Shown piece by piece: positions 7,101-43,219 of a DNA stretch of 64,000 nt (position 1 is its first letter; every line of letters starts with the position of its first letter). A program made the translations under genes and the position numbers. The stretch is taken from the NCBI GenBank assembly GCA_937900255.1, contig CALCDZ010000001.1:57988-121987 (forward strand). Reading direction: 5' to 3'. Source of the stretch: an uncultured bacterium (GTDB taxonomy: Bacteria; Patescibacteriota; Patescibacteriia; SG8-24; DYFX01). The notes beneath the pieces were generated by a model that saw only the letters and a program-made list of their open reading frames with translations, searched no databases and was not told the DNA's origin.

Positions 7101-8367
7101 TTCGGATGTCGGTACCGGCGATTGCAAGGATGCCGACTTCGATCATGACGGGGTTCCGGAAGGCCGTTATACCCCCGGCGCGTACGCTTCGCCTCCGACG
7201 CCGACGTACCCAGGCGCACAGCCTCATGCATGCGATGATTGCGTCAACCTTTACAATCCGAACCAGACCGACCGGAACGCCAATGGCATCGGCGACGCCT
7301 GCGAAGCCGGCGCGGTCGGTCGCTGTCAGTACAAATACTGCGGTTCCGCCCCGAACGACGCGACGCCTGGCGCGGCTTGCTCGACCGATGCCGATTGCGC
7401 GGCGCCGGACCTCTGCATCGTCGTCGATCAGCCGATGTGCACCGTCAACTGCGCCGCGGACGCCGATTGCCAGCCGCCGAACCTCGCGCTTTCCGGCGTG
7501 TGCAAGCTCGATTGGGGCGTCTGCGACGGAACCGGCGCGGGGGCGGGGGATTGCTGCTTCTCGAACTCCGATTGCGTTTCCGGAACCTGCAAGGCGCTCG
7601 TCAAGCCGTTCATCGAGACGGTTTCCGGCCAGATCTACAGCGGGGGCGAACTGCAGGCCGGCGAGACGCCGCCCGTCTATAACGCGACGTTCTGCCTGCA
7701 GTCCAACGGCTCGATCACCAATTTCACGAGCGCGGGCGGCTGCTCGCTCTCCGGTATCCCTGAGTACCGGATACCTTCCAAGGAGACGGGGTATTCAGGC
7801 TCCTTCGGATCGATCGACGTCGACGGTATCCTGAACGGGAAATATGGAGCGCTGAAGACGCCGGCACAGCCACCTGACCAGCTCGGCGGCGGCATCTACT
7901 ATTATCCCTCAGGCCTGACCGTGAGCGCGCCGATCGTCTTCAAGAACTCCGCGGGCGTCGCTCGCGCCAACGGGCTTGTGGTCGTCAAAGGGGACTTGCA
8001 CATCGACGCTGACCTTGAATACCAGGACCGCAACGAAAGCGACCTCAAGAACCTGGCCTCGGTCGGGTGGATCGTGCTCAAGGATGCGGGCGGGTCCGGC
8101 GGCAACGTCTACGTGTCCGGCACGGTCCGCAAGCTGGTCGGTGCGTTCTATGCCGAAAACGGCATCGATACCGGTGAAGGGACGACCCAGCTTGAGGCAG
8201 CGGGCGCCTTCGTCGCCAGGAACTTCAGCTTCAAGCGGCAGTATGCGTCGCGGACGTCGGGTTCGGAGCGCGTGACGTTCGACGCGCGCCTCATCCTCAA
8301 TCCACCGCCGGGCCTTTCGGATGCCGGACGTTCCCTGCCCGGCTTCCGTTCCGTGTCGGGGGAATGA
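4156..8367 (+). CDS. giant secreted Cys-rich repeat protein (nine CxDGxDNDGNGKxDCxDxxC repeats; thrombospondin-type-3 / MopE-like metal-binding motif) - putative surface adhesin
   Basis: Start MKKRVLIAAALIAAASA (signal peptide) at 4156; the ORF-track start at 3943 is an upstream extension. Nine tandem Asp/Cys repeats at 4738-5950. A TSP3-like YNPNQTDRNANGIGDACE at ~7243-7308. Further Cys-rich modules lie at 7300-7600. About 1403 aa. Confidence 0.75.
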   Translation: MKKRVLIAAALIAAASAWRVFWPPAAEALTGSSCPGNICNGTVKVGGQDVGYSWTENQGAAGASLKFRFRSGPYVASADPVRFIVTVSAPFTSNSSLKNPSPSTALPPNQVVNGPRTIVERSSASVSAGTSYDFVQELQYGSASPGTVSVTLEFDAYGTAKFVGPFDVYFDSASPSNRDEGGSLAPIYGGGYRQCYDAVDNDLDYRQDCADADCSGKPIGATSVCEASETTCNDGLDNDGNGKTDCADPLCNGRPGNAAGTKSCGVENGGAAHANCADGFDNDGNGKIDCSDDAPGTGCWKSGFQDCAATETSCTDNIDNDRDQDYSSAVDANPGTGVDCRDYDCKGRGNCTTDERKRWDAGSGTFVEDPAQCFDGIDNDLDGMKDCADPDCLGATSGAQRCTTYEAYLPPRPLDPTGASAPAFYFNYCNDGIDNDGNGLTDALDPACKNVFGECGPSPAIEDFTSLSCSDGKDNDLNGRIDCGDAACRAGGKIGRAGCLNGTCGLPAKYATTQTDAAACAASENAASVCGDGIDNDGNGKADCSDASCAGLRHGPTVGSVGAPYVCGAESGPLTCHDGADNDSDGGADCFDAACQDGAQCAKRPGAGGWALAASCPVIPETTALAPIAPGSLVLQYAHDDRIYAGSPYRVRFVGYGSFSSLTIVIGDAAVPANAFPFDAGTGNCTLAGTGSAKLRYGSPSAGVGVITEIPGQAPSDFDVTLTCASSSAMPLGPRSYKLSVVDTHAGNVEFGEASPVVQVFEHMPPTLTDPAVEAEAIVSGKVDVPVGGTVRFQATPSSDPSGICRCDFNLNGMSTSSPDGNCLVTIGPFANDAPSYAISAAAVDGASNKSATSTIQTINVNVIPSVAEDLTLGVDGNGAAVTTYRGGDDISLSANYRTDTLSTFPAASNCRVYVYDKSWTGGQAASVSMTPVPVGDMLGCQGVYTVPAGLAAGRYWIFVEATDSSGDIVRSNVQTFLKCEPSDVGTGDCKDADFDHDGVPEGRYTPGAYASPPTPTYPGAQPHACDDCVNLYNPNQTDRNANGIGDACEAGAVGRCQYKYCGSAPNDATPGAACSTDADCAAPDLCIVVDQPMCTVNCAADADCQPPNLALSGVCKLDWGVCDGTGAGAGDCCFSNSDCVSGTCKALVKPFIETVSGQIYSGGELQAGETPPVYNATFCLQSNGSITNFTSAGGCSLSGIPEYRIPSKETGYSGSFGSIDVDGILNGKYGALKTPAQPPDQLGGGIYYYPSGLTVSAPIVFKNSAGVARANGLVVVKGDLHIDADLEYQDRNESDLKNLASVGWIVLKDAGGSGGNVYVSGTVRKLVGAFYAENGIDTGEGTTQLEAAGAFVARNFSFKRQYASRTSGSERVTFDARLILNPPPGLSDAGRSLPGFRSVSGE

Positions 8368-11270: not shown

Positions 11271-13025
11271 ATGCCTGTCGCCCTCAAGACCGCCGCCGGC
11301 CTGCTTGAACTGCTTGCCGGCCAGGGAAAACTCGGCAAGGAATCGTTCGTGGCGTTGTCCACGGAGTTTTCAGGACAAGACGCGCTCAACCTCGAGCGCG
11401 CGCTGGTCGAACGCAAGCTGGTGCAGGAAGAGGATCTCGCACGGGCGAAGGCCGAGGGGTTGGGAGTGGAGTTCGTCGATCTCATCGGCCGCCAGGTGGA
11501 TGCCGAAACGCTCAACATCATCCCGAAATCCGTGGCGGAAACGTATCAAGTGCTGGCCTATGAGCTTTCCGGCCCTTCGATCAAGATCGCCTACGTCGAT
11601 CCCTTGGATGCCGGCGCCGTCGAAGCGATCGGGTTCCTGACGGCCGAGCGCAACCTGCAGCCGATCCCCGGCATCATCACCCCGACGGCCTTCATGGCGG
11701 TCCTCAAGCAGTACGGCACCCTCAAGAGGGAGGTCGCGACGGCGCTCGAGACGGCCAAGGAAGAACGGGAACCGGAAAAGGAAGACCGGTTGGCGGGCGA
11801 GGAAGCCAGGATCGAGGAGGTCATCAAGGGCGCTCCGGTATCCCGCATCGTTTCCGTCATCATGCGGTATGCGGTCGAATCGAAGGCGTCCGACATCCAC
11901 ATCGAGCCGAAAGGCAAGGAAACGAGGGTGCGGTACCGCGTCGACGGGCTGCTCCGGACGCTGCTCACGCTGCCAGGCTATCTCCATGGATCGATCATCT
12001 CGCGCGTGAAGGTGCTCGCGAACCTCAAGCTCGACGAGACGCGCATCCCCCAGGACGGGCGCATCACCCAGGTCATCGGCGGCAAGAACATCGATTTCCG
12101 CATCTCCACCCTGCCGGTGGTCGACAACGAGAAAGTCGTCATGCGCGTGCTCGACACTTCCACGGGCGTGCCGAGCCTCGAGCAGCTCGGTTTCCGCGGG
12201 AAGTACCGCGAAGCCATGGAGCAGGAGATCCGCCGCCCGCACGGCATGATCCTGATCACCGGCCCGACCGGATCGGGCAAGTCGACGACGCTCCTGACCA
12301 TGCTCAGCATGATCAACGACGAAGGCATGAACATCTCGACCTTGGAGGACCCGGTCGAGTATTTCCTGCCCGGCGTCAACCAGTCCCAGGTGCGTCCCGA
12401 GATCAATTTCACCTTCGCGAACGGGCTGCGCGCGCTGCTCCGCCAGGATCCCAACGTCATCATGGTCGGCGAGATCCGCGATCGTGAGACGGGTGAACTG
12501 GCCGTCCATGCCGCGCTGACGGGTCACCTGATCTTGAGCACGATCCATACCAACGACGCCATCGGCGTGATCCCGCGCCTGAACGACCTCGGCGTCGAGG
12601 CGTTCCTGCTGTCCGCCACGCTCAACCTGATCATCGCGCAGCGGCTCGCCCGCAAGATCTGCGAGCACTGCAAGGAGCCGGCCGAAACGCCGGCCAATCT
12701 GGTGGAAACGGTACGCGAAACCCTCAAACGGATCCCCGCGGAGTATCATCCGGCCGGCCTTGATCCGGACGGCGTCCTGCCGTTCTTCAGGGGCAGGGGA
12801 TGCCCGCGTTGCAGCGACACCGGATACCTGGGGCGCACCGTCATCGCCGAGCTGATCGACGTCACGCCGGAAATCCAACGATTGATGAACGCCGGGTTCC
12901 CGACCGATCAAGTCAAAGCCGAAGTCGAACGGCAGGGCTGGATCACCATGAGACAGGACGCCATGTTGAAGGTCGTCGAAGGCGTCACTACGATTGACGA
13001 GGTCCTCCGCCTCGCGCGAGAATAG
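11271..13025 (+). CDS. pilB: type IV pilus extension ATPase PilB (GspE family)
   Basis: 584 aa with Walker A GPTGSGKST and an N-terminal GSPII_E_N-like region. Confidence 0.9.
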   Translation: MPVALKTAAGLLELLAGQGKLGKESFVALSTEFSGQDALNLERALVERKLVQEEDLARAKAEGLGVEFVDLIGRQVDAETLNIIPKSVAETYQVLAYELSGPSIKIAYVDPLDAGAVEAIGFLTAERNLQPIPGIITPTAFMAVLKQYGTLKREVATALETAKEEREPEKEDRLAGEEARIEEVIKGAPVSRIVSVIMRYAVESKASDIHIEPKGKETRVRYRVDGLLRTLLTLPGYLHGSIISRVKVLANLKLDETRIPQDGRITQVIGGKNIDFRISTLPVVDNEKVVMRVLDTSTGVPSLEQLGFRGKYREAMEQEIRRPHGMILITGPTGSGKSTTLLTMLSMINDEGMNISTLEDPVEYFLPGVNQSQVRPEINFTFANGLRALLRQDPNVIMVGEIRDRETGELAVHAALTGHLILSTIHTNDAIGVIPRLNDLGVEAFLLSATLNLIIAQRLARKICEHCKEPAETPANLVETVRETLKRIPAEYHPAGLDPDGVLPFFRGRGCPRCSDTGYLGRTVIAELIDVTPEIQRLMNAGFPTDQVKAEVERQGWITMRQDAMLKVVEGVTTIDEVLRLARE

Positions 13026-13425: not shown

Positions 13426-14634
13426 ATGCCGATTTTCAGTTATAAGGTCAAGGACGCGCGCGGCGCCCAGCTCGATGGGGCGGTCGAAGCGGTCGACGAG
13501 ACCCAGGCATCGGAAGTCCTGCGCGAGCGCGGGTATCAGGTCATCTCCGTCATCGCGCGCGAGGAACCTTCGGTCGGCAACATGCGCTTCACGTTCCTTC
13601 AGCGCGTGACGCCCAAGGACGTCGTCGTCTTTTCGCGCCAGCTTTCGGTCATGGTCGGCGCCTCCGTCGCCATCGTCCGCGCGCTTCGCACGAGCGCGCG
13701 GCAGACGAGCAACTCCAAGCTTCGGGCCATTGTGCTGGACATCGCCAACGAAGTCGAAGGGGGCGTGCGCCTGTCGGAGGCGTTCAACAAGCACCCGCGC
13801 GTCTTCGGCAGCTTTTACGTCAACATGATCCGCTCCGGCGAGACGACCGGCAAGCTGGATGATGTCCTCCTGTACCTTGCCGAGCAGCAGGAAAAGGATT
13901 ACGACCTGCGGCAGCGGGTGCGCGGCGCGATGACGTACCCTATCTTCGTCCTCGCGATGCTTTTCGCGGTCGGCACGGTCATGATGATCTTCGTCGTCCC
14001 GAAACTGACCGCCGTGCTGTCCGAGTCCGGCGTCGGACTGCCGGTCTCCACGCGCATCCTGATCGCCGTGAGCGATGTCTTCGTCAACTTCTGGTACCTG
14101 ATCGTGGGCGGCGTCCTCGGCGCCGTCCTCGGCGTGCGCGCGGCGTATCGCACGCCGGTCGGACGGCGCATTTTCGACGGTTTCGTCCTGCGCCTGCCGG
14201 TGTTCGGCTCCCTGCTGCGCCGGATCTACATGACCCGCATCACGCATAGCCTTTCGACCTTGATCGAAGGCGGCGTCGATATGGTCACGAGCCTGAAGAT
14301 CGTCTCCGGCATCGTCGGCAACGAGGTCTATCGCGAGACGCTCGTGAGGACGGTGCAGGAAGTCGCGGCCGGGAACTCCATGACGACCGTCTGGAAAGGC
14401 AACAAGGCGATCCCGGACATGGTCACCCAGATGGTGGCGGTCGGGGAGGAGAGCGGAAAGCTGCAGCAGGTCCTCGAGCGGCTGACGGATTTTTATACCC
14501 GCGAAGTCAACGCTTCCGTCGCGAACCTCTCGACCGCCATCGAGCCGATCATCATGGTCGTCATGGGCGTCGCCGTCGGGGGCCTGGTCTCGGCCATCAT
14601 CTTGCCGATGTACACGTTAGCCCAACAGATGTGA
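13426..14634 (+). CDS. pilC: type IV pilus inner-membrane platform protein PilC (GspF family)
   Basis: 402 aa with two T2SSF-like repeats and three TM segments. Confidence 0.9.
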   Translation: MPIFSYKVKDARGAQLDGAVEAVDETQASEVLRERGYQVISVIAREEPSVGNMRFTFLQRVTPKDVVVFSRQLSVMVGASVAIVRALRTSARQTSNSKLRAIVLDIANEVEGGVRLSEAFNKHPRVFGSFYVNMIRSGETTGKLDDVLLYLAEQQEKDYDLRQRVRGAMTYPIFVLAMLFAVGTVMMIFVVPKLTAVLSESGVGLPVSTRILIAVSDVFVNFWYLIVGGVLGAVLGVRAAYRTPVGRRIFDGFVLRLPVFGSLLRRIYMTRITHSLSTLIEGGVDMVTSLKIVSGIVGNEVYRETLVRTVQEVAAGNSMTTVWKGNKAIPDMVTQMVAVGEESGKLQQVLERLTDFYTREVNASVANLSTAIEPIIMVVMGVAVGGLVSAIILPMYTLAQQM

Positions 14635-33329: not shown

Positions 33330-33404
33330 TCCGAGGTAGCTCAGCGGTAGAGCAGTGGACTGTTAATCCATTGGTCCTGGGTTCGAATCCCAGCCTCGGA
33401 GCCA
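33330..33404 (+). tRNA. tRNA-Asn (anticodon GTT), CCA encoded
   Basis: TCCGAGGTAGCTCAGCGGTAGAGCAGTGGACTGTTAATCCATTGGTCCTGGGTTCGAATCCCAGCCTCGGAGCCA. Acceptor TCCGAGG/CCTCGGA, anticodon loop CTGTTAA, T-loop TTCGAAT. Confidence 0.85.
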
Positions 33405-33441
33405 TGAGCAGGCGTGTGGGGCGACCCACGTGCTTGGTCAA
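33394..33441 (+). repeat. 48-bp direct repeat copy 1 (tRNA-Asn 3' end plus 37 nt downstream)
   Basis: cctcggagccatgagcaggcgtgtggggcgacccacgtgcttggtcaa. Copy 2 at 35157-35204 is identical except for one mismatch. Confidence 0.75.
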
Positions 33442-33443
33442 AA

Positions 33444-33478
33444 GCCAGCCAAAAAATTGGCTGGCTTTTGTGTTTTTT
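33444..33478 (+). terminator. rho-independent terminator after tRNA-Asn
   Basis: GCCAGCCAA-aaaa-TTGGCTGGC hairpin followed by TTTTGTGTTTTTT. Confidence 0.6.
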
Positions 33479-33708
33479 AGGTCGTTCGGATTAGCGACCT
33501 GAACCAGTGTGATTTCGCATTGGAAACGCACCCACGTGGGAATCAAGAACTTTAACCTTATTTCCTGGTTCGAATCCCACGTGTTTTCACGCGCCGTCAC
33601 TGCATGACCTCGGGCGCATTGGTTGACCCAATGCATCAGAAAAGCTACTCTTAAAGGAGGATTTCCAACGTAATTCGATATAGCACCTATTTTGCAAATG
33701 ATAATGTT

Positions 33709-34305
33709 ATGAAGCGAGCATATATTTTGCTGCTTGTCGTTACGTATAGCCTTGGACTGATCGGGGTGACATCCTGGTTTTGGTTGCGGCAAAATCGGAA
33801 TAATCAAACCGGATCTTCCTGCTTCGACTCCGCGATTTTTTGCAGGCCCGCGGAATACATGGCGGAGGACGGCATCGTTTATGCTCATCTGCGTCGGGGC
33901 GAAGAGGAGGCAATGATTGAACGTATCCGCGAGTATTACACTGCAGACTATCGCAAGACGCTACCTAAGAAGTTCGAAGCGGAATTGACCTCTGCCGATA
34001 CTCCTCAGGAAAAGCAAAAGTACGCAGACGCCCTTGCGTCCCTGAAAAAGTGGATTGACGTGGATACGTCCTTTAGCGCGCCTCGTACTTATAAGGACTT
34101 GGACGGCGTCGTGGCTGTGGTCACGGGCGCCTCGGCATTCGTACCGGGCGTAGGATACGTTGAGTCGAGAGCTAACGTTTTTTTCTTCCGCCGCGATGAT
34201 ACGTCGTACCGGCTCGCGGCTGTCACGCCCGTCGGGGAAGATGCAAGGACGTATGAATCGGCGCCGGTCGACATGTTCAAGAGGGGTGTGGGGGCTATAG
34301 AATAG
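33709..34305 (+). CDS. hypothetical membrane-anchored protein (island cargo)
   Basis: 198 aa with an N-terminal TM helix. It sits in an AT-richer segment and is convergent with the CHAP-like gene. Confidence 0.5.
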   Translation: MKRAYILLLVVTYSLGLIGVTSWFWLRQNRNNQTGSSCFDSAIFCRPAEYMAEDGIVYAHLRRGEEEAMIERIREYYTADYRKTLPKKFEAELTSADTPQEKQKYADALASLKKWIDVDTSFSAPRTYKDLDGVVAVVTGASAFVPGVGYVESRANVFFFRRDDTSYRLAAVTPVGEDARTYESAPVDMFKRGVGAIE

Positions 34306-34360
34306 CTTACCGAACAAAAAAGAGGCATTCTGACAGTGGATGCCTCTGATGATCTCGATC

Positions 34361-35041
34361 CTAGTACGTGTACGTGGCCTTGAGCCTGAATCCCTGGAAG
34401 ATGACGTTGGGGAAATAGTTCTGCCGTACCTGCCTGAGTGACATGTCGCCACAACGATTCGTCGTGTGCGCGGCGAGCCAGACGTCGTCCCCGTTTTGTC
34501 CCGTCACGAAGTAGGCGTGATCCCAGCTGCCGTCTCCGGTCCAGTCCGCTAGGATCACATCCCCGGCATAGAAGCGCGGAATGGTCGAGAGGCTCTGTGG
34601 AATGGACACGGCGCCATATGTCCTTCCGGAGTTAAGCATGAAGGTGCGGAACTCGCTGACACCGGCCCAGGAGTTGCTTCGGTTGTGATCACCGGCGCTG
34701 AGGTAGTACCAGGCATCGCTACACCACCAACACGTTCCGCCGACCGGCTGCCAACCGCCGAATGCGAGTGCTTGAGACACGAAGTTGGTGCAGTCGCTTG
34801 AGTATGCCTCGTAAGCCTTGTTGTACCCAGTGGTGAGTGACGTGTTGGTTATTCCGCAGTAGTGCAGCGCGTACGTGACTGCGGAACTCGCGGAATAGGT
34901 GCCGGTCGTGACCGACTGCACCACGGACCCCGTGTCGCTGCCGTCGCTGTCTCCGGACGTCGAGGCGTCCATGTCGGCAACGCACGACATCGATACCGAT
35001 CCAATGAGCGCGAAGACCAAAAGAGCTGTTCCTAGTCGCAT
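34361..35041 (-). CDS. secreted CHAP/NlpC-P60-like cysteine amidase (putative peptidoglycan hydrolase)
   Basis: Signal peptide MRLGTALLVFALIGSVSMSC. Cys motif SDCTNFVSQALAFGGW and downstream His GSWDHAYFV give the papain-fold Cys/His arrangement. RBS GGAAGAGGA before ATG 35041; an alternative start is at 35059. Confidence 0.55.
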   Translation of the reverse strand: MRLGTALLVFALIGSVSMSCVADMDASTSGDSDGSDTGSVVQSVTTGTYSASSAVTYALHYCGITNTSLTTGYNKAYEAYSSDCTNFVSQALAFGGWQPVGGTCWWCSDAWYYLSAGDHNRSNSWAGVSEFRTFMLNSGRTYGAVSIPQSLSTIPRFYAGDVILADWTGDGSWDHAYFVTGQNGDDVWLAAHTTNRCGDMSLRQVRQNYFPNVIFQGFRLKATYTY

Positions 35042-35156
35042 CTGTCCTCTTCCTTTCATGCAATGCCATCGACACTATGTCGATGCGGGAGGAGACTAGC
35101 ACGCGGTTGGCGTTGGCGTCAACCGTGCCTAGGGACTCCAGTGGGAATCGCTACCT

Positions 35157-35204
35157 GGGAGCCATGAGCAGGCGTGTGGGGCGACCCACGTGCTTGGTCA
35201 ATAG
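35157..35204 (+). repeat. 48-bp direct repeat copy 2 (att-like duplicate of the tRNA-Asn 3' end)
   Basis: cctgggagccatgagcaggcgtgtggggcgacccacgtgcttggtcaa, preceded by a degenerate T-arm-like gggaatcgctacc. Confidence 0.75.
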
Positions 35205-35250
35205 ATCATCAAATCATTGGTGGGCTGTTGACTGATAGCAACACGAGTCT

Positions 35251-35847
35251 ATGTGGTTCCACAAGGAGGAAAACCAAATAGATAAAATGTCAAAAGTTTT
35301 TATTGACGAATTTCCTTCTTGGGCGATTAAGCACTCGGCCAAATTGATTTCGGAACTTAAGGAATCACGAAACGAGTATGAGAAGAGTTGGGCCAATCTT
35401 CTCAAGGAACAAAATGCACTTGGAGATACTCTAATTGATTATTTTACGGCCGCGCACGCCATCTACATCAATTCACTGCCTGATGCTTATATTCAATTAT
35501 TGGGAGGTGGCAAAAAAATTGCATCAGCGCTCTCCCTGTGGCCAAGTCGATCCCAAAACTTTTTCCTAATAGCATCGAAGTTCCATCAAAAAGTTTCGTC
35601 TGATGTAGGTCGCGGCGGCAAGAGTTCACTGGTTGAATCATTTGAAAAAGTGTTTTCAAGCGGTGGAAATCTTGAACCCTTGGCTGTGCACATCAGCACT
35701 GCAATTGCGCATTCAATTTCCCAAGAAATGGGCGTGGACACAGATGACCCATTTTCAGCTGCAGGCCTATACTCAACTCTTTTTCGATTATCGCAGGAGC
35801 AACTGGAGTGGGTTTCCAGCCACATTATCAAGCGGGATGCCCGTTGA
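35251..35847 (+). CDS. hypothetical all-alpha protein, low-GC orphan gene
   Basis: 198 aa with markedly AT-rich coding sequence. Lies between the tRNA-end repeat (35157-35204) and the R-M flanking repeat (35935). No family recognised. Confidence 0.5.
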   Translation: MWFHKEENQIDKMSKVFIDEFPSWAIKHSAKLISELKESRNEYEKSWANLLKEQNALGDTLIDYFTAAHAIYINSLPDAYIQLLGGGKKIASALSLWPSRSQNFFLIASKFHQKVSSDVGRGGKSSLVESFEKVFSSGGNLEPLAVHISTAIAHSISQEMGVDTDDPFSAAGLYSTLFRLSQEQLEWVSSHIIKRDAR

Positions 35848-35934
35848 GACCCAAGTACGGCAGTGGCCCACAAATTGACCCCTTCAAAAGCCCTAAGGTG
35901 CCCACAGGAATTGGGCACCAGACCCACCAGCGGA

Positions 35935-36040
35935 GCCAGCAAGACCCATCACGCAAGTGGCGGGTCTTTGCTTTCCGTAAGTCGATTTCCCTTTGGGGGT
36001 GTCGTCTGCTAAAATTGGTCAACATCAGCCAAGGCCGCCT
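35935..36040 (+). repeat. ~105-bp imperfect direct repeat, copy A (immediately upstream of hsdM)
   Basis: gccagcaagacccatcacgcaagtggcgggtctttgctttccgtaagtcgatttccctttgggggtgtcgtctgctaaaattggtcaacatcagccaagg... is about 90% identical to copy B. Confidence 0.75.
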
Positions 36041-36070
36041 CTTTTTTGCTGAAATCAGCGACATACCGCT

Positions 36071-37522
36071 ATGTTCGAGCAAGCCTTCAAGAACATCGAC
36101 GACATCCTCCGCACGGATTCCGGTTCGGCTACGGAGCTGGACTACGTGGAGCAGACTTCCTGGATCATTTTCCTGAAGTACCTGCATGACCTGGAGCTCG
36201 AGAACGCGAAGAAGGCGGAGCTCTCCGGCAAGAAGCACGAGCATACCTTTGAACCGAAGTTCCGCTGGGATACCTGGGCCTGCCCACGGACACCCGACGG
36301 CAAGATCGACCACCATAAAGCGCTCGACGGTAAGGACCTCAAGGAGTTCGTCGACGAAAAGCTTTTCCCGTACCTCAAGAAGTTCAAGAGCGCAGATCCG
36401 GACACCGTCGAATACAAAGTCGGTGAGATCTTCAGCGAACTCAAGAATAAAATCACGAGCGGCTACAAGCTCCGCGAGATTTTGAACATCGTCTGCGATT
36501 TGCACTTCCAGCGTAGCGAGGAGAAGCATGAGCTCTCGCATCTGTACGAGGCCCGAATCGCCAAGATGGGCAACGCGGGACGGAACGGCGGCGAGTACTA
36601 CACGCCTCGCCCCCTCATCCGCACCATCGTGCAAGTGGTCAGGCCTGAAATCGGCGACAAGATCTACGACGGCGCCTGCGGCTCAGCCGGCTTCCTGGTC
36701 GAGGCCTTCAAGTACCTGACGGAAAACAGCGCCAAGCTCTCCACGGCCGAAATGCGCACGCTCCAGACCAAGACCTTCTACGGCAAGGAGATCAAGTCCT
36801 TGGCCTACATCATCGGCGTGATGAACATGATCCTGCACGGGGTCGAGGCGCCGCACATCCGGCACATGGACACGCTGTCCCAGAACGTCAACGACATCCA
36901 GGAGAAGGACCGCTTCGAGGTCATCCTGGCCAACCCGCCGTTCGGCGCCGGTATCGGCAAGGAAGTCCAGCAGAACTTCCCGATCAAGACCGGCGAGACG
37001 GCCTACCTGTTCCTCCAGCACTTCATCAAGAGCCTCAAGGCCGGCGGCCGGGCGGGCATCGTCATCAAGAACACCTTCCTTTCCAACACCGATGACGCCT
37101 CCGTGCGCCTGCGCAGGCACTTGCTTGAGAGCTGCAATCTCCACACCGTGCTGGACTTGCCGGGCGGCGTCTTTTCAGGCGCTGGGGTGAAAACTGTGGT
37201 GCTGTTCTTCGAGAAAGGCGCGCCCACCAAGAAGGTCTGGTACTACCAGCTCAAGCTCGACCGCAATCTCGGCAAGACCAACCCGATCAACGAGAAGGAT
37301 CTGGCGGACTTCGTGAAGCTCCAGAAGACCAAGGCCGATTCCTCCAACGCCTGGTCGGTCAAGGTTTCGGATCTCGATCAGGAAACGCTTGATTTGTCGG
37401 TGAAGAACCCTAAGGGCACCGAGACTGTCGCGCACCGCAGCCCCAAGGACATTCTCAAGGAGATGGTGAAATTGGATGCAGAGAGCGCGAAAGCGTTGGC
37501 TGGTATCAAGGGGTTGCTATGA
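36071..37522 (+). CDS. hsdM: type I restriction-modification system methyltransferase subunit
   Basis: MFEQAFKNIDDILRTDSG... N-terminus. N6-adenine MTase motif NPPFG. AdoMet motif DGACGSAGFL. Confidence 0.9.
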   Translation: MFEQAFKNIDDILRTDSGSATELDYVEQTSWIIFLKYLHDLELENAKKAELSGKKHEHTFEPKFRWDTWACPRTPDGKIDHHKALDGKDLKEFVDEKLFPYLKKFKSADPDTVEYKVGEIFSELKNKITSGYKLREILNIVCDLHFQRSEEKHELSHLYEARIAKMGNAGRNGGEYYTPRPLIRTIVQVVRPEIGDKIYDGACGSAGFLVEAFKYLTENSAKLSTAEMRTLQTKTFYGKEIKSLAYIIGVMNMILHGVEAPHIRHMDTLSQNVNDIQEKDRFEVILANPPFGAGIGKEVQQNFPIKTGETAYLFLQHFIKSLKAGGRAGIVIKNTFLSNTDDASVRLRRHLLESCNLHTVLDLPGGVFSGAGVKTVVLFFEKGAPTKKVWYYQLKLDRNLGKTNPINEKDLADFVKLQKTKADSSNAWSVKVSDLDQETLDLSVKNPKGTETVAHRSPKDILKEMVKLDAESAKALAGIKGLL

Positions 37523-38679
37523 GTGGTGAGTGGCCCACGAGAAAATTGGGCGCTGTTTTGCAGATAATCAATGGTTACGCGTTTGATTCCAAACATTTTG
37601 ATGCCACAAATGGAATGCCGCTGATTAGGATCCGTGATTTAAAATCTGGTACTCACACGGAAACGCGATTTGCAGGGGCATACGACAAAAAATATATAGT
37701 TAAAGCAGGAGATTTGCTCATTGGAATGGATGGTGAGTTTGGTTGCTACGAATGGGGTGGTGAACCCGGCTTATTAAATCAGCGAGTATGCAAGTTACAG
37801 TCGTTTGCAACATCGCTAGCGCCGCGCTTCTTATTTTACGGAGTTAACAGTTACCTTAAGGACATTGAGAATGAGACTGGATATACCACAGTAAAGCACC
37901 TGTCTTCAAAACAAATCCTCGACATCGAATTTCCAATTCCGCCGCTACCGGAGCAACGGCGGCTCATTAAGTTACTCGACCAAGCTTTTTTGGATATCGC
38001 CATCGCCAAGGCGAATGCCGAAAGGAACTTGCAAAATGCGCGCGATCTTTTTGAGAGCCGTCTCAATGAGATTTTTACCAAGCGGGGACTGGGGTGGGTG
38101 GAAAAACGGCTCGATCAGATTGGAACAACACAAACCGGTTCGACTCCGTCGACTTCCGATAAAGAAAACTACGGCAACTTCATTCCTTTTATAAAGCCGG
38201 CAGACTTTAATGAAGATGGCTCATTGAACTATGGCAATGCTGGTCTTACCGAAAAGGGATTATTGAAAGCGCGCAAAGTGCGAGCTGGATCAGTCCTAAT
38301 GGTGTGCATCGGTGCGACTATCGGGAAATGTGGTTATTGTGATCGTGATGTAACCACAAATCAGCAAGTTAACTCACTCACCCCATTCAAAGGTACTTTC
38401 TACAAGCTTGTTTATTATCAGATGCGTACCAGAGACTTTCAAAGACGCATGCTTTTGAGTTCTGCTCAGGCCACGTTGCCGATAATAAACAAGTCTAAGT
38501 GGGAGGCTTTAACAATTTTGCTGCCACAAAAGACGGGAGAACAATCACGTATCGTTATGGAGCTGGCCGGCTTGGACAAAGAAGCAGCCCGCCTCAAGTC
38601 CACCTATCAGAAAAAGCTCCACGCATTGGAAGCGCTAAAGAAATCCTTGCTCAACAAGGCTTTTCGTGGTGAGCTGTAG
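37519..38679 (+). CDS. hsdS: type I restriction-modification system specificity subunit
   Basis: 386 aa with two target-recognition-domain halves separated by conserved helical repeats. ATGA overlap with hsdM. AT-rich relative to hsdM and hsdR. Confidence 0.85.
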   Translation: MSGEWPTRKLGAVLQIINGYAFDSKHFDATNGMPLIRIRDLKSGTHTETRFAGAYDKKYIVKAGDLLIGMDGEFGCYEWGGEPGLLNQRVCKLQSFATSLAPRFLFYGVNSYLKDIENETGYTTVKHLSSKQILDIEFPIPPLPEQRRLIKLLDQAFLDIAIAKANAERNLQNARDLFESRLNEIFTKRGLGWVEKRLDQIGTTQTGSTPSTSDKENYGNFIPFIKPADFNEDGSLNYGNAGLTEKGLLKARKVRAGSVLMVCIGATIGKCGYCDRDVTTNQQVNSLTPFKGTFYKLVYYQMRTRDFQRRMLLSSAQATLPIINKSKWEALTILLPQKTGEQSRIVMELAGLDKEAARLKSTYQKKLHALEALKKSLLNKAFRGEL

Positions 38680-38685
38680 GCGCAT

Positions 38686-40989
38686 ATGAACGAAGCCGAA
38701 ACGCGCGCGGAATACGTCGACCCCAAGCTTAAGGCGAGCGGGTGGGGCGAAATCGAAGGATCGAAGGTCCTGCGCGAGTTTCGGATCACCGAGGGCAAGA
38801 TCCAGACGGGCGGCACGCGCGGGAAGCCGGAGATCGCCGATTATGTGCTGGTCTACAAGAACCGCAAGCTCGCCGTCGTCGAAGCTAAACCGGAAGGGAT
38901 GGAGGCGACGGAGGGCGCAGTCCAGGCCAAGGCCTATGCGGCGAAGCTCGGTTTGGAATACACCTACGCCACCAATGGTCGGGACATCTACGAGGTGTCG
39001 ATGAAGACCGGGCACGAAGGTGCCGTGGGCAGCTTCCCGACGCCTGACGAACTCTGGGCCCGCACCTTCGCCGAGCAGAACGCCTGGCGCGAGAAGTTCG
39101 CCGCCGTCCCGACGGAGGGCGAAAAGGGCCGCCGGTATTATCAGGAGCTGGCCATTGACAACGCGCTCGAGGCCGTGGCCGAGGGCAAGAAGCGGATCCT
39201 GGTGACCATGGCCACCGGTACCGGCAAGACGGCCGTGGCGGCGCAGTTCTCCTGGAAGCTGTTCCAGTCGCGTTGGAACCTCCGGGGCGACGGCGCGCGC
39301 CGGCCGAGGATCCTGTTCCTGGCCGACCGCAACATCCTCGCGGACCAGGCCTTCACGAACGACTTCGCGATCTTCGAGCGCGACGCCCGGGTGCGCATCA
39401 ACCCGCTCGACATCCGCAAGAAGGGCGGCGTGCCGACCGGCGGCAGCGTCTTCTTCACCATCTTCCAGACGTTCATGAGCGGGCCGGGCGATACGCCGTA
39501 CTTCGGCGAGTACCCGCCGGATTTCTTCGACCTCGTCATCATCGACGAGTGCCATCGCGGCGGCGCCAACGACGAGGGCAACTGGCGCGGCATCTTGGAA
39601 TACTTCGCCCCGGCCGTGCAGCTCGGTCTGACGGCGACGCCGAAGCGCAAGGACAACGTGGATACTTATAGATATTTCGGCGAGCCGGTCTACACGTATT
39701 CCCTCAAACAAGGCATCAATGACGGCTTCCTGACGCCGTTCAAGGTCAAGCGCATTCAGACGACGCTGGACGAGTACGTCTACACCTCGGACGACCAGGT
39801 CATCGAGGGCGAAGTCGAGGAGGGCAAGATCTACGAGGAAGTTGACTTCAACAGGATCATCTTCATCAAGGAACGCGAAGCCAAGCGCGTGCGCATCGTG
39901 CTGGACGAGATCGACCAGGACGAGAAGACGATCGTCTTCTGCGCGACCCAGGACCACGCCTTGGCCGTCCGCGACCTGATCAACCAATACAAGGACAGCC
40001 GAGACCCGAATTACTGCGTCCGCGTGACCGCCAACGACGGCGCGCGCGGCGAGCAGTTCCTGCGGGAGTTCCAGGACAACGAGAAGACCATCCCGACCGT
40101 CCTGACCACTTCGCAGAAGCTCTCGACGGGCGTGGACGCCCGCAACGTCCGCAACATCGTGCTGATGCGGCCGGTCAACTCCATGATCGAGTTCAAGCAG
40201 ATCATCGGGCGCGGCACGCGGCTTTTCGACGGCAAGGAGTATTTCACCATCTACGACTTCGTCGACGCCTATCACCACTTTTCGGACCCGGAGTGGGACG
40301 GCGAACCGATCGAGGAAACGGAAGAGAAACCCCGCCACTCCAAGGAGTCCCAAGGAGATCCCAAGAAACCGCGCCAGGTGTCCGAACAGCCGGAAGACCA
40401 GCCGGCGAAAAAGCTTCGGATCAAGTTGCGTGACGGCAAGGAACGCGAGATCCAGCACATGATCTCGACCTCGTTCTGGAGCGCCGACGGCAAACCGCTT
40501 TCGATCCAGGAGTTCATGGACAACCTGTTCGGGGCGATGCCTGAGTTCTTCAGAGACGAGGAGGAGCTCCGCAAGATCTGGTCCGACCCGCGCACGCGCC
40601 AGGCCTTCCTCGATAAGATCGCAGAACTCGGCTACGGCAAGGATGCGCTGGAGACGCTCCAGAAGATGATCGACGCTGAGGACAGTGACCTGTTCGACGT
40701 GCTTTCGTATGTCTCGTTCCTGACGCCGCCGATCACGCGCGAGGAGCGCGTCAGCCACGCGAAGGATCGCATCTACCAAGGCCTCGGCGAACTCCAGCAG
40801 GATTTCCTCGGGTTCGTCCTCGGGAAGTACGAGGAGAGCGGGGTCGACGAGCTCGGCGAGCACCAACTGCCGATCCTGCTGAACCTGAAATACCAGGCCA
40901 TCGCTGACGCCGAGCAGGCGCTCGGGAATGTCGGCACAATCCGCACGCTCTTCCTGGATCTGCAGAGGAAGCTGTATGCTAAGATGTGA
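38686..40989 (+). CDS. hsdR: type I restriction enzyme R subunit (shorter than usual at 767 aa)
   Basis: N-terminal MNEAETRAEYVDPKLKASGW, helicase motifs ATGTGKT and DECHRG, then a C-terminal helical region. Confidence 0.85.
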   Translation: MNEAETRAEYVDPKLKASGWGEIEGSKVLREFRITEGKIQTGGTRGKPEIADYVLVYKNRKLAVVEAKPEGMEATEGAVQAKAYAAKLGLEYTYATNGRDIYEVSMKTGHEGAVGSFPTPDELWARTFAEQNAWREKFAAVPTEGEKGRRYYQELAIDNALEAVAEGKKRILVTMATGTGKTAVAAQFSWKLFQSRWNLRGDGARRPRILFLADRNILADQAFTNDFAIFERDARVRINPLDIRKKGGVPTGGSVFFTIFQTFMSGPGDTPYFGEYPPDFFDLVIIDECHRGGANDEGNWRGILEYFAPAVQLGLTATPKRKDNVDTYRYFGEPVYTYSLKQGINDGFLTPFKVKRIQTTLDEYVYTSDDQVIEGEVEEGKIYEEVDFNRIIFIKEREAKRVRIVLDEIDQDEKTIVFCATQDHALAVRDLINQYKDSRDPNYCVRVTANDGARGEQFLREFQDNEKTIPTVLTTSQKLSTGVDARNVRNIVLMRPVNSMIEFKQIIGRGTRLFDGKEYFTIYDFVDAYHHFSDPEWDGEPIEETEEKPRHSKESQGDPKKPRQVSEQPEDQPAKKLRIKLRDGKEREIQHMISTSFWSADGKPLSIQEFMDNLFGAMPEFFRDEEELRKIWSDPRTRQAFLDKIAELGYGKDALETLQKMIDAEDSDLFDVLSYVSFLTPPITREERVSHAKDRIYQGLGELQQDFLGFVLGKYEESGVDELGEHQLPILLNLKYQAIADAEQALGNVGTIRTLFLDLQRKLYAKM

Positions 40990-41120
40990 CGACGTGGGTA
41001 CGATCGTCGATTGCTGATTCGCCGGAATCAATAAACCGAATCCGCCCCTGTGAGGCGGGGGAGATGGACGTACTCGGCCTGTCTCCGTATCGAGGTTTCA
41101 ACGTCCTCCACGACGTGGAA

Positions 41121-41226
41121 GCCAGCAAGACACATCACGCAAGTGGTGTGTTTTGCTTTCCATAAGTCGATTTCCCTTTGGGGGTGTCGTCTGCTAAAAT
41201 TAGTCGACATCAGCCAAGACGCATTT
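41121..41226 (+). repeat. ~105-bp imperfect direct repeat, copy B (immediately downstream of hsdR)
   Basis: gccagcaagacacatcacgcaagtggtgtgttttgctttccataagtcgatttccctttgggggtgtcgtctgctaaaattagtcgacatcagccaagac... Confidence 0.75.
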
Positions 41227-41779: not shown

Positions 41780-43219
41780 ATGTCGAACGGCGTGGCCAAG
41801 AACATCTTTCACCTGCTGACCTCCTCGGTCCTCCAAAAGGGCATCGCTTTCGTGTACTTCGCGCTCATCGCCCGTTGGGCCGGCGTCGCGCATACGGGGG
41901 CGTATTTCTTCGCCCTCTCCTGGACGTTGATGTTCACGACGATCACCGACATGGGCCTCACGCCCGTCCTGATCCGCGAATCGGCCAAAGACCACGCCAA
42001 TACCGAGAAGTTCCTGAACCAGACGCTTTCGCTCAAGCTTCCGCTCACGGCCGTGGCGGTACTCTCCGCCATCGTCGGCGCCTGGCTGTTCCATATCGAA
42101 CCGGTCACGCGTACGCTCGTCATGCTCTCCACCATCGTCATTTCGCTGGATGCCGTCTCCCTTACATTCTACGGCGTCCTGCGCGGGCACCATGTCCTGA
42201 AGCACGAAGGCCTCGGGCTGGTCATCGGCCAGTCCGTCACCATGCTCATCGGCCTCGCATCCTTGAAGCTCCACATGCCGCTCTGGGTGCTGGTCGTCGC
42301 GCTCATCGCCGGCAGTTCCTGGAACGCGCTGGCGTCCTGGTGGGTCGTGACCCGCAAGCTCCGTATCCGCGTCCGTCCGAGCTGGGACCGGAACTTCGCC
42401 CTGACGATCCTGCGTACCGCCTTCCCGTTCGCGCTCGCGGGCTTTTTCGTGAAGATCTACACCAGCGCCGACGCCGTGCTGCTCACGCACTTCCATGGAG
42501 AGGCGGCGGCCGGCCTTTACAGCGTCCCGTATAAGCTGACCTTCGCCTTCCAGTTCGTGCCAATGACGTTCACGGCGGCGTTCTACCCGGCCATGAGCCG
42601 CGCCTTCGCGACGGACAAGAAGGCGCTCGGCGATCTCCTGTACCAGGCGCTGCGGTCGCTGACGCTGATCGTCGCCCCGATCGTCTCCGGCATCGCCGCC
42701 CTGGCGCCGCAATTGGTGCAATCCGTTTTCGGCAAGGAGTACCTGCCGTCCGTCCTTGCGGTCGAGACGCTTATTTTCGTACTCGTCCCGATCTTCCTGG
42801 ATTTCCCGATCGGCTCGCTCCTGAACGCCTCCGACCGCCAGATGACGCAGACGAAACTGATGGCGGCTGCGACCGCCGTCTCGCTCGCGCTCAACCTCGC
42901 CCTCATCCGGGATTACGGCTTGGTCGGGGTCGTCGTCGCATCGATCGTCAGCCACATGGTCCTGATCGTCGGCGGCCTCATCGTCATCGGGAAGTTCCTG
43001 GAATGGCCGGCGGCCCGGTTCGCCGGGGCTGCCGTCCGCACGGGTCTGGCGGCCGGCGCGATGGCGCTCGTCGTGACGTTCACGAAGTCGCTCCTGCCTC
43101 TTCCGGCCGTGGTGTTCCTCGGTGCGCTCAGTTACCCGGCCGCTGCCTTCGCGTTCGGCGCGATCGGCGTGAAGGATCTCAAGATGCTGGCCGCGGGGGT
43201 GCTGAAGCCAAGCGCATGA
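41780..43219 (+). CDS. polysaccharide/oligosaccharide flippase (Wzx / MOP superfamily)
   Basis: 479 aa with about 12-14 TM helices. The N-terminus has the typical polysaccharide-biosynthesis-protein layout. Confidence 0.75.
   Translation: MSNGVAKNIFHLLTSSVLQKGIAFVYFALIARWAGVAHTGAYFFALSWTLMFTTITDMGLTPVLIRESAKDHANTEKFLNQTLSLKLPLTAVAVLSAIVGAWLFHIEPVTRTLVMLSTIVISLDAVSLTFYGVLRGHHVLKHEGLGLVIGQSVTMLIGLASLKLHMPLWVLVVALIAGSSWNALASWWVVTRKLRIRVRPSWDRNFALTILRTAFPFALAGFFVKIYTSADAVLLTHFHGEAAAGLYSVPYKLTFAFQFVPMTFTAAFYPAMSRAFATDKKALGDLLYQALRSLTLIVAPIVSGIAALAPQLVQSVFGKEYLPSVLAVETLIFVLVPIFLDFPIGSLLNASDRQMTQTKLMAAATAVSLALNLALIRDYGLVGVVVASIVSHMVLIVGGLIVIGKFLEWPAARFAGAAVRTGLAAGAMALVVTFTKSLLPLPAVVFLGALSYPAAAFAFGAIGVKDLKMLAAGVLKPSA

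Follow-up and report, generated by a model that had tools for sequence, protein, structure and literature searches.

An exported Amidase_6 hydrolase and its constant neighbour, a membrane-anchored protein of no described family, on a small tRNA-Asn cassette

Analysis of the window, the whole 64,000-nucleotide stretch of DNA studied here, revealed a gene of a predicted exported hydrolase of the Amidase_6 family adjacent to a gene of a small protein (hereafter, the partner) that belongs to no described family. The partner gene adjoins an Amidase_6 gene in all 13 distinct loci with usable context, far beyond chance. In the window, the pair occupies a 1.76-kb cassette, the first of three (Table 1), on either side of which a 44-bp sequence from the tRNA-Asn 3' end and downstream bases is repeated perfectly. 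The best guess at the role of the partner, put forward tentatively, is that of an inhibitor or immunity factor of the amidase. No paper describing this pair was found in the literature search.

Table 1. Coordinates of the amidase–partner pair, the repeats and the neighbouring cassettes in the window
Feature	Positions	Strand	Remarks
tRNA-Asn (GTT)	33330..33404	+	ARAGORN; Rfam tRNA, 74.9 bits; last bases open the left repeat
Left 44-bp att-like core (GGAGCCATGAGCAGGCGTGTGGGGCGACCCACGTGCTTGGTCAA)	33398..33441	+	Overlaps tRNA 3' end; exact repeat of 35158-35201
Terminator hairpin, strong	33439..33470	+	14-bp stem and T-run, directly after the left core
Partner gene	33709..34305	+	198 aa; N-terminal membrane helix, two-Cys segment (C38, C45), helical hairpin, curved beta-sheet (predicted)
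Intergenic 10-bp hairpin	34321..34347	.	-18.4 kcal/mol, z -2.3; then TTTTTTGTT on the minus strand
Amidase_6 gene	34361..35041	-	226 aa from M7; Pfam PF12671
Amidase ORF, longer form	34361..35059	-	232 aa, upstream ATG at 35059
Right repeat	35145..35201	+	Degenerate tRNA-Asn 3' end copy (35145-35164), then exact 44-bp core (35158-35201)
Second cassette ORF, 198 aa	35251..35847	+	No family; low GC3 (0.42)
Third att-like site	35925..36033	+	Pseudo-tRNA 3' end (CGGAGCCAGCAA), hairpin, about 65 bp
Third cassette, type I restriction-modification (hsdM, hsdS, hsdR)	36071..40989	+	Pfam families
Fourth att-like site	41112..41218	+	Closes the restriction-modification cassette; 89-96% identical to 35934-36033

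The sequence-only reading of this DNA had placed here a convergent pair consisting of a secreted enzyme with a papain-fold Cys/His motif and a small N-terminally anchored protein. Both reading frames were recovered with the same ends, 35041 being the second Met of the minus-strand frame, and the signal peptide, the motif, the anchor and the convergent orientation were all borne out. The start at the second Met gives the form of the amidase deposited in the public database (P0001), and the amidase orthologs begin at the equivalent MR. The product matches Pfam Amidase_6 over residues 55-203 with 87.1 bits (cut-off 23.2, E 1.8e-24), and this family alone was reported; no Pfam match at E <= 1 was obtained for CHAP (PF05257) or NlpC_P60 (PF00877), so that of the families proposed earlier only Amidase_6 stands. 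The motif D89-C90-TNFVSQ, H181 (WDH) and H198 (AAHT), numbered in the 232-aa form, are invariant in 12 amidase homologs with identity down to about 29%; variability of these Cys and His residues had been set beforehand as a ground for abandoning the assignment. On the basis of its sequence, the enzyme is taken to be a Cys-His-His hydrolase of the papain fold that is exported and belongs to Amidase_6, not to CHAP or NlpC_P60.

In the amidase, a signal peptide of the lipoprotein type (...SVSMSC) and a linker rich in Asp, Ser and Gly precede the papain-fold catalytic domain; no delivery domain was found in it, the only export determinant being the Sec/lipoprotein signal. A conserved [AGS]-C closes the signal peptide. 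In five high-GC orthologs its hydrophobic region ends in LASC, SASC, SAGC, SVSC or SMSC, position -3 often being Ser rather than Leu, and a distant amidase clade has Ala-X-Ala sites and no Cys at the signal-peptide end. In the lineage of the window, the enzyme is probably lipid-anchored, as judged from this signal. In the AF2 model, the core of which has a pLDDT of about 90, residue 90 and the His residues are located at the start of a helix (84-94 in 226-aa numbering) and on strands, respectively. The best PDB match in the fold search was Bacillus subtilis YjcM (9a4p, E 2.6e-7), with NlpC/P60 next, represented by a fold-level match only to structure 4xcm (E 0.04); the YjcM model surfaced in this search alone, PDB sequence and profile searches with the amidase having given nothing useful. 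No NCBIfam match was found for the amidase, and its PHROG matches were weak (phrog_13513, E 2e-11). We infer that it probably cuts peptide or amide bonds of peptidoglycan. No Amidase_6 protein with a biochemically defined substrate was found in the literature consulted; the B. subtilis members YhbB and YjcM are listed as uncharacterised, and the family is named 'putative amidase'.

The N-terminal hydrophobic segment of the partner is represented by one long predicted helix, residues 2-33, present in every full-length ortholog given the correct ATG, several orthologs having been shortened to 141-148 aa by public gene calls. A conserved Cys pair follows the helix, and the rest of the protein, about 160 aa, is a globular domain with a predicted NTF2/cystatin-like fold, in which a cone of helices is packed on an antiparallel sheet that is curved. 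An F-S-x-P-R-x-Y motif at residues 122-128 is invariant in the partner. Scores in the fold comparison are generic for NTF2, and NTF2-like matches score at least as high as cystatin matches. From the predicted helix, the partner appears to be bitopic, with the ectodomain on the outer, extracytoplasmic face of the membrane. A Pfam scan of 14 partner sequences and 10 longer homologs gave only scattered sub-threshold matches (TcpC, E 0.025, in one member); no NCBIfam or PHROG match was found for the partner, and a search of its profile against PDB sequences yielded nothing useful. The partner family, with 60 representatives, is very rare; one member comes from a MAG labelled Patescibacteria, and one contig is labelled Gammaproteobacteria, a label that is doubted. 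Among five orthologs, the amidase gave dN/dS values of 0.13-0.22 and the partner values of 0.12-0.29; accordingly, both reading frames are real, constrained coding sequences under purifying selection.

The stop codons of the two convergent genes are separated by 55 bp. On the amidase strand, a T-run (TTTTTTGTT) comes after the intergenic hairpin, which is therefore likely the terminator of the amidase gene; possibly, the hairpin acts in both directions. Twelve of the 13 pairs are convergent, which implies that enzyme and partner are not co-transcribed; the sole co-directional pair is that of locus L094.

The 13 pairs are those of the window, L001, L002, L003 (two divergent pairs about 2 kb apart), L004, L007, L008, L091, L092, L094, L105 and L107. 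The two genes stay adjacent down to identities of 26% for the amidase and about 18% for the partner, at contig GC of 0.30-0.63, with differing flanking genes and also in loci with no detectable att repeats, and the pairwise identities of the two proteins are correlated (r = 0.94). That the two genes never occur together elsewhere had also been set beforehand as a refuting condition, and the outcome was the opposite. In L105 and L107 the partner domain is duplicated and still faces an amidase. A metagenome scan with the low-GC partner subgroup yielded three loci, two of them of the partner family (L093 and L094), with usable context for L094 only. Orphan partner genes were not seen among the loci examined. 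The partner HMM gave no match at 79 other Amidase_6 loci of reference genomes, mostly of Streptomyces with some of Bacillaceae, or at eight viral Amidase_6 loci, which points to a partner specific to this amidase clade. Genes for T6SS, T7SS, T4SS or polymorphic-toxin domains were absent from every pair neighbourhood. The GC content of the pair is 0.55, compared with 0.62 for the rest of the window.

The proposal that the pair is tRNA-island cargo was confirmed: the tRNA-Asn gene is genuine and the pair lies inside a tRNA-linked, repeat-flanked islet. The 44-bp cores have a start-to-start spacing of 1760 bp. The same core was found beside the amidase gene in L001 and L004, where the terminator hairpin is kept next to it and the att junctions are hybrid. 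In both loci the order is amidase side, 44-bp core, terminator hairpin, as predicted for the junction of an excised circle; the contig of L004, checked for circularity as an explanation of the hybrid junction, has no terminal overlap. The third att-like element recurs in L001, L003 and L004, and L003 shows an analogous repeat arrangement, in which pseudo-tRNA ends delimit the neighbouring cassettes as well. The 198-aa ORF of the second cassette, for which no NCBIfam match was found, also adjoins the pair in L010 and L104. Upstream of the pair, L003 carries an identical tRNA-Asn and L105 likewise carries a tRNA-Asn; L105 has the order dnaG-rpoD-tRNA-Asn in common with the window. The RpoD proteins of the window, a short form of 428 aa, and of L105 share 56% identity. 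Like other tRNA-linked islets, the unit is bracketed by tRNA-Asn 3'-end repeats, but it is very small, with two genes, and lacks an integrase: no integrase or recombinase gene was found between 33404 and 41732, a region covering the pair cassette and the three-cassette array. In L105, a serine recombinase is encoded 1.6 kb beyond the pair. A tRNA-Val called by ARAGORN at 42628 was rejected, being unconfirmed by Rfam and located inside a polysaccharide-synthesis CDS.

In the tentatively preferred explanation, the pair would be a self-contained two-gene envelope module carried on the repeat-flanked tRNA-Asn cassette. The NTF2/cystatin-like domain of the partner would be exposed on the outer side of the membrane that also carries the enzyme, where it may bind the enzyme one-to-one and restrain it, shielding the producer's own wall; we infer both the binding and the inhibition. 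Activity of the enzyme would then be confined to places or times at which it is free of the partner; a host cell, a neighbouring cell or a defined site would be examples of such places. Consistent with this are the tight linkage, which survives the change of gene order in L094, the predicted extracytoplasmic location of both products, and a setting resembling that of mobile accessory genes for competition (att flanks, two pairs in L003, a rare family and the low GC of the pair). There is also a precedent in YjcM and YjcN, an Amidase_6 enzyme reported to contact a small protein encoded by a neighbouring gene. The prevailing convergent orientation, which is unusual for toxin-immunity pairs, the absence of a delivery domain and of a neighbouring secretion system, and the lack of orphan partner genes argue against inhibition. 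Of the features by which toxin-immunity pairs are recognised, conserved adjacency was found, and operon co-transcription and a link to delivery or secretion were not. Moreover, the apparently lipid-tethered enzyme would suit a role as a cis-acting wall enzyme better than as a diffusible weapon.

An improbable extension of the inhibitor reading is that the partner represents a new family of protein inhibitors, anchored in the membrane and cystatin/NTF2-like, with specificity for wall hydrolases of Amidase_6. The pair would then be a miniature, integrase-less 'attack and self-protect' cassette hopping from one tRNA-Asn att site to another in bacteria of the Patescibacteria type, which have small genomes and are probably episymbiotic, with the surface-tethered enzyme breaching the wall of the cell to which the bacterium is attached.

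The partner could instead have a positive role: as a scaffold or targeting subunit in the membrane, it would hold, position or activate a housekeeping autolysin at the cell surface during, for example, the separation of cells, the turnover of the wall or the insertion of envelope machines. This role is doubtful in itself, yet nearly as likely as one in inhibition or immunity. Both proteins seem to be tethered to the same membrane face, one through a lipobox-type Cys and the other through the membrane helix; separate promoters, risky for an antitoxin, are tolerable for an activator; and the genes are strictly paired one to one. Among other NTF2-like domains there are some that bind peptidoglycan or organise complexes of the envelope, as exemplified by the NTF2 domain of Pgp2, which binds peptidoglycan and directs a carboxypeptidase (PMC8038945). 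The position of the pair downstream of tRNA-Asn in the window, L003 and L105, with dnaG-rpoD upstream in the window and L105, could mean an old chromosomal location. However, a housekeeping function fits poorly with the att flanks, the differing flanking genes, the hybrid junctions of L001 and L004, the two pairs of L003 and the rarity of the partner family, and many other Amidase_6 clades manage without such a partner.

The absence of any direct functional link, the two genes merely sharing one small mobile cassette, appears quite unlikely. The cassette moves as a repeat-bounded unit, and simple co-inheritance would also give the observed co-divergence; nevertheless, adjacency persists at the lowest identities of both proteins, across the whole range of GC content, at loci with no att repeats and through the orientation change of L094, the duplicated partner domains of L105 and L107 still face an amidase, and both genes are under purifying selection.

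Bitopic envelope proteins with NTF2 domains, namely, VirB8-like proteins, TcpC (3ub1), PrgL, TraH and the N-terminal domain of PBP2a, resemble the partner at the fold level only. It is very improbable that the pair represents diverged VirB8-like and VirB1-like components, a channel scaffold and a wall hydrolase, of a monoderm-type type IV secretion or conjugation system. VirB8 homologs are reported to be seldom detected in Patescibacteria, where they may have diverged strongly (PMC12102498), and the weak TcpC match is in line with such an origin, but no gene of VirB4, a coupling protein, a relaxase or another T4SS component was detected near the pair in the 13 loci, the fold scores do not rise above the generic NTF2 level, and the cassette is only 1.76 kb long.

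The least credible alternative, already suggested by the sequence-only reading as a lysin and holin, is a phage-derived lysis cassette of an endolysin and a holin-like or spanin-like membrane protein: Amidase_6 domains do occur on viral contigs (eight loci), the amidase has weak PHROG matches and the partner has one membrane helix, but the partner, with a large folded ectodomain and no PHROG match, is absent from all eight viral loci, no phage structural, replication or other phage genes flank the pair in any locus, and the amidase has its own signal peptide. A holin proper, small, mostly membrane-spanning and with a short charged C-terminus, was likewise rejected for the partner, in view of its single helix and folded domain.

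Among known systems, YjcM, itself a member of Amidase_6, is the best structural match to the amidase. Its contact with the small protein YjcN is reported from one in-cell crosslink and an AlphaLink score of 0.609. In the YjcM-like loci L039 and L070 of Bacillaceae, a co-directional downstream ORF of about 95 aa, lacking a membrane helix, encodes a putative YjcN; the partner HMM gave no match to these ORFs, and chain B of 9a4p was absent from the Foldseek matches of the partner. Lysostaphin (with Lif) and zoocin A (with Zif) are Sec-exported wall hydrolases whose genes, on mobile elements, adjoin a self-protection gene with its own transcription; the pair would share this arrangement if the partner is protective. 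Lysostaphin and zoocin A are, however, M23 metallopeptidases, not papain-fold enzymes, and immunity factors of the Lif/Zif type are cytoplasmic FemABX-type proteins that alter the wall cross-bridge, not extracytoplasmic binders. Among proteinaceous inhibitors of papain-fold enzymes, B. subtilis IseA/YoeB inhibits D,L-endopeptidases; the partner has no sequence similarity to it or to the cystatins, and neither the QxVxG loop nor the PW loop typical of cystatins was identified in the partner. In Tae/Tai systems, including Tae3-Tai3 (PDB 4HZ9/4HZB), a papain-fold peptidoglycan amidase is likewise matched by a small cognate protein in the compartment of the enzyme, and Amidase_6 is grouped beside the T6SS amidase effector Tae3 in a classification paper (PMC10318531). 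In contrast, the structural match of the window amidase to Tae3 is weak (E 0.95), no T6SS or other injection system is encoded nearby, the enzyme carries a Sec/lipoprotein signal, the genes are mostly convergent, and the partner is membrane-anchored and NTF2-like, not a member of a Tai family.

Amidase_6 is a widespread hydrolase family with members lacking an assigned role even in B. subtilis, and one of its clades is strictly tied to an envelope protein of its own that had not been described before, providing a concrete two-protein system for studying the control of a papain-fold wall hydrolase. If the partner inhibits, it would represent a new class of proteinaceous wall-hydrolase inhibitors or immunity factors in uncultivated bacteria; if it activates or anchors, a novel mode of autolysin positioning. 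The tRNA-Asn cassettes, bounded by att sites and free of an integrase, are a compact example of the shuffling of accessory envelope and defence genes in these genomes. The pair does not overturn current ideas; it is no surprise, but offers a clean lead that can be tested.

A 109-nt repeat bracketing the pair in L105 was considered as an att site and rejected: it is common to the amidase gene and a gene of a 116-aa protein, and corresponds to a duplicated promoter and signal-peptide region.

The partner gene directly adjoins an Amidase_6 gene in all 13 distinct loci with usable context: the window (also represented by L010), the homolog-bearing loci L001, L002, L004, L007, L008, L091, L092, L094, L105 and L107, and L003 with two separate pairs. 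Genomic neighbourhoods were examined for homologs of the amidase and for those of the partner, and every locus so obtained was scanned with HMMs of both families. The genes are convergent in 12 of the 13 pairs, with 17-90 bp between the reading frames; the pair of L094 is co-directional, amidase first. Even where identity falls to 26% for the amidase and about 18% for the partner, the pairing persists; the contigs span 30-63% GC, and the genes around the pairs are unrelated. Pairwise identity matrices of the two proteins are correlated (Pearson 0.94), the partner diverging faster than the amidase, and L003 carries two divergent pairs about 2 kb apart on one contig (4537-5743, 7825-9031; 33% amidase and 26% partner identity). 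The amidase and its partner form an evolutionarily inseparable unit, moving as a small cassette; that two unrelated genes merely hitch-hike together is unlikely. The sequence-only reading of a toxin/immunity or lysin/holin-like pair depended on the genes co-occurring elsewhere, and such co-occurrence is strongly supported.

No match to the partner HMM turned up in the 79 other Amidase_6 loci drawn from reference genomes (chiefly Streptomyces, with some Bacillaceae and others) or in eight viral Amidase_6 loci; therefore, the partner is restricted to a single amidase clade. In two YjcM-like loci of Bacillaceae a co-directional ORF of about 95 aa is found instead, unrelated to the partner and probably YjcN.

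The two convergent ORFs of the sequence-only reading are confirmed at their stated place, and both are coding sequence under constraint, with low dN/dS among five orthologs (0.13-0.22 for the amidase, 0.12-0.29 for the partner). The second Met of the amidase, at 35041, where the sequence-only reading placed the gene's end, yields a 226-aa form equal to the public entry P0001; four orthologs start at the equivalent MR. The pair has 55% GC versus 62% in the remaining window, and lies in a GC-poor stretch (about 33 to 39 kb) against a background of 62-66%.

Features of the pair and the att-like sites in the window
Feature	Position	Strand	Remarks
tRNA-Asn	33330-33404		ARAGORN and Rfam
Left 44-bp core	33398-33441		begins within last tRNA bases; perfect repeat
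Terminator hairpin, strong	33439-33470		inside cassette
Partner ORF	33709-34305	+	198 aa
Amidase ORF	34361-35059	-	232 aa
Right 44-bp core	35158-35201		perfect repeat; preceded by degenerate copy of tRNA 3' arm
Third att-like site	about 35925		pseudo-tRNA 3' end CGGAGCCAGCAA and hairpin
Fourth att-like site	about 41112		pseudo-tRNA 3' end CGGAGCCAGCAA and hairpin

The minus-strand product belongs to the Pfam family Amidase_6 (PF12671; 87.1 bits, cut-off 23.2), and no CHAP or NlpC_P60 match was listed in the Pfam search; the description "CHAP-like" is accordingly correct at clan level and incorrect at family level. The motif D89-C90-x-N-F-V-S-Q, together with H181 and H198 (numbering of the 232-aa form), is invariant in 12 homologs, down to about 29% identity. 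In the AF2 model the catalytic core is confident (pLDDT about 90 over residues 130-226); disorder is seen in the signal peptide and in a linker rich in Asp, Ser and Gly. Among PDB structures the sole significant match is YjcM of Bacillus subtilis, from 9a4p, an integrative model of YjcM with YjcN (E 2.6e-7); next come an NlpC/P60 endopeptidase at E 0.04 and assorted folds of the CHAP and amidase types, and Tae3 is listed with E about 1. Amidase_6 has been classed together with Tae3-type effectors (PMC10318531), and YhbB and YjcM, which represent it in B. subtilis, continue to be listed as uncharacterised (PMC10653849). The protein adds an exported papain-fold hydrolase of the Cys-His-His type to a known family, which is assumed to cut peptidoglycan. 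A Cys is conserved at the signal-peptide end of the five high-GC orthologs (LASC, SASC, SAGC, SVSC or SMSC), which suggests a lipoprotein; the distant clade has an Ala-X-Ala ending without Cys.

The partner has no family in Pfam, NCBIfam or PHROG, and a profile of 14 homologs matches only 60 cluster representatives (E <= 0.001) among 1.84 billion; it represents a family without earlier description. The AF2 model is confident (pLDDT 82.5): residues 2-33 form a long N-terminal helix, a stretch of low confidence (29-41) includes C38, with C45 just past it, and two long helices (63-95, 99-114) precede a curved sheet (117-174). Foldseek agrees with the fold, but nothing is significant (best E 0.03), and YjcN (9a4p chain B) is not among the matches. 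Anchored in the membrane and probably facing outward, the partner is an NTF2/cystatin-like protein. Public gene calls misplace its start at an internal Met (141-148 aa, e.g., entries P0014, P0015, P0026), stripping the conserved membrane anchor from the window copy (148 aa, P0026) and the orthologs in L002, L003 and L004; the upstream in-frame MKR... start and membrane helix are kept in all shortened orthologs. Homologs in L105 (4001-5071, 356 aa) and L107 (4001-5200, 399 aa) carry the NTF2-like domain twice in tandem, and each still faces a convergent Amidase_6 gene.

The co-occurrence part of the toxin/immunity proposal holds, and its functional part is a reasonable hypothesis. We tentatively favour, at somewhat less than an even chance, an immunity-like inhibitor: the partner would be a cognate binder restraining the enzyme on the producer's surface. 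This role is preferred because the module is mobile and rare, one locus holds two divergent pairs, the partner sits in the compartment where self-damage would occur, its fold is akin to inhibitors of papain-fold enzymes, and effector-immunity pairs are known among related amidases. Against it stand chiefly the convergent orientation, hence uncoupled expression, the absence of a delivery apparatus, the likely lipid tether of the enzyme, and the generic fold match of the partner. The same features speak for the chief rival, only somewhat less probable, in which the partner would serve a surface autolysin as scaffold, targeting subunit or activator; other NTF2 domains act so in VirB8-like proteins, PBP2a and Pgp2. 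A remnant of a VirB8/VirB1-type secretion system is unlikely, as T4SS genes are absent near every pair. A phage lysin/holin cassette is likewise unlikely, and the holin idea is rejected: the partner is a helix plus a folded domain, has no PHROG match and is missing from the viral Amidase_6 loci.

The perfect 44-bp repeats, spaced by 1760 bp, enclose only the terminator hairpin and the gene pair with the intergenic hairpin that the genes share. Three cassettes stand in tandem in the region 33398-41218: one with the pair, one with an orphan ORF of 198 aa, and one with a type I restriction-modification system. The four att-like tRNA 3'-end copies separate them, the third and fourth bounding the one-gene and restriction-modification cassettes. 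Direct repeats of about 100 bp (35934-36033, 41120-41218) flank the latter, and no integrase is encoded in the array. The same design was found in L003: an identical tRNA-Asn precedes the first pair, a pseudo-tRNA end lies 1746 bp past the real one, and a third copy follows 1188 bp further, then the second pair; each pair is downstream of a tRNA-Asn 3'-end copy. In L004 (1561-1758) and L001 (7763-7839) the core adjoins the amidase gene in a hybrid junction of amidase-side flank, core and the terminator hairpin seen after the window's tRNA, an order that would be expected for an excised circle or a tandem-element junction; terminal overlap, the sign looked for in support of a circle, was not found on the L004 contig. 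L105, from a 37% GC genome, has the window's dnaG-rpoD-tRNA-Asn order, with the pair two genes further on and a serine recombinase just past it. Either integration has recurred downstream of tRNA-Asn or the position is an old one; the repeats speak for recurrent integration. A wall hydrolase accompanied by its own partner on a tRNA-linked islet is a familiar theme, of which the pair and its att cassette without integrase are a variation.

The organism may plausibly be of a Patescibacteria type with a single membrane. Encoded in the window are PilB and PilC of the type IV pilus, LigA, GatA and a short RpoD (428 aa), 56% identical to that of L105, which shares the local gene order. One partner homolog is from a MAG labelled Patescibacteria, and one contig is labelled Gammaproteobacteria. 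Upstream of pilB (11271-13025) and pilC (13426-14634), the window encodes a 1474-aa protein (3943-8367) with at least five "acidic double-disulfide" repeats (NCBIfam NF033662, E 1.6e-46).

The orphan ORF (35251-35847) has a very low GC3 of 0.42, its sole family match is sub-threshold (viral capsid SPV1_VP10, E 0.002), and it is kept beside the pair in L010 and L104. The specificity gene hsdS (37519-38679) has GC3 0.48 versus 0.85 in hsdM and 0.87 in hsdR, which flank it; by composition it looks foreign to its own system and may have been swapped. The tRNA-Val called by ARAGORN at 42628-42701, without an Rfam report at the gathering threshold, is probably a false positive, because it is located inside a 479-aa Polysacc_synt/MurJ-like CDS (41780-43219); the same call occurs in L104. 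A Zeta_toxin/AAA_33 kinase gene just past the att junction beside the L004 pair (993-1499) may be cargo of a neighbouring element. In L105 a 109-nt direct repeat (3786-3894, 5673-5781; 83% identical) copies the amidase 5' end, i.e., the upstream region and signal-peptide codons, onto the adjoining gene, and therefore the amidase and a 116-aa exported protein have a common 5' end.
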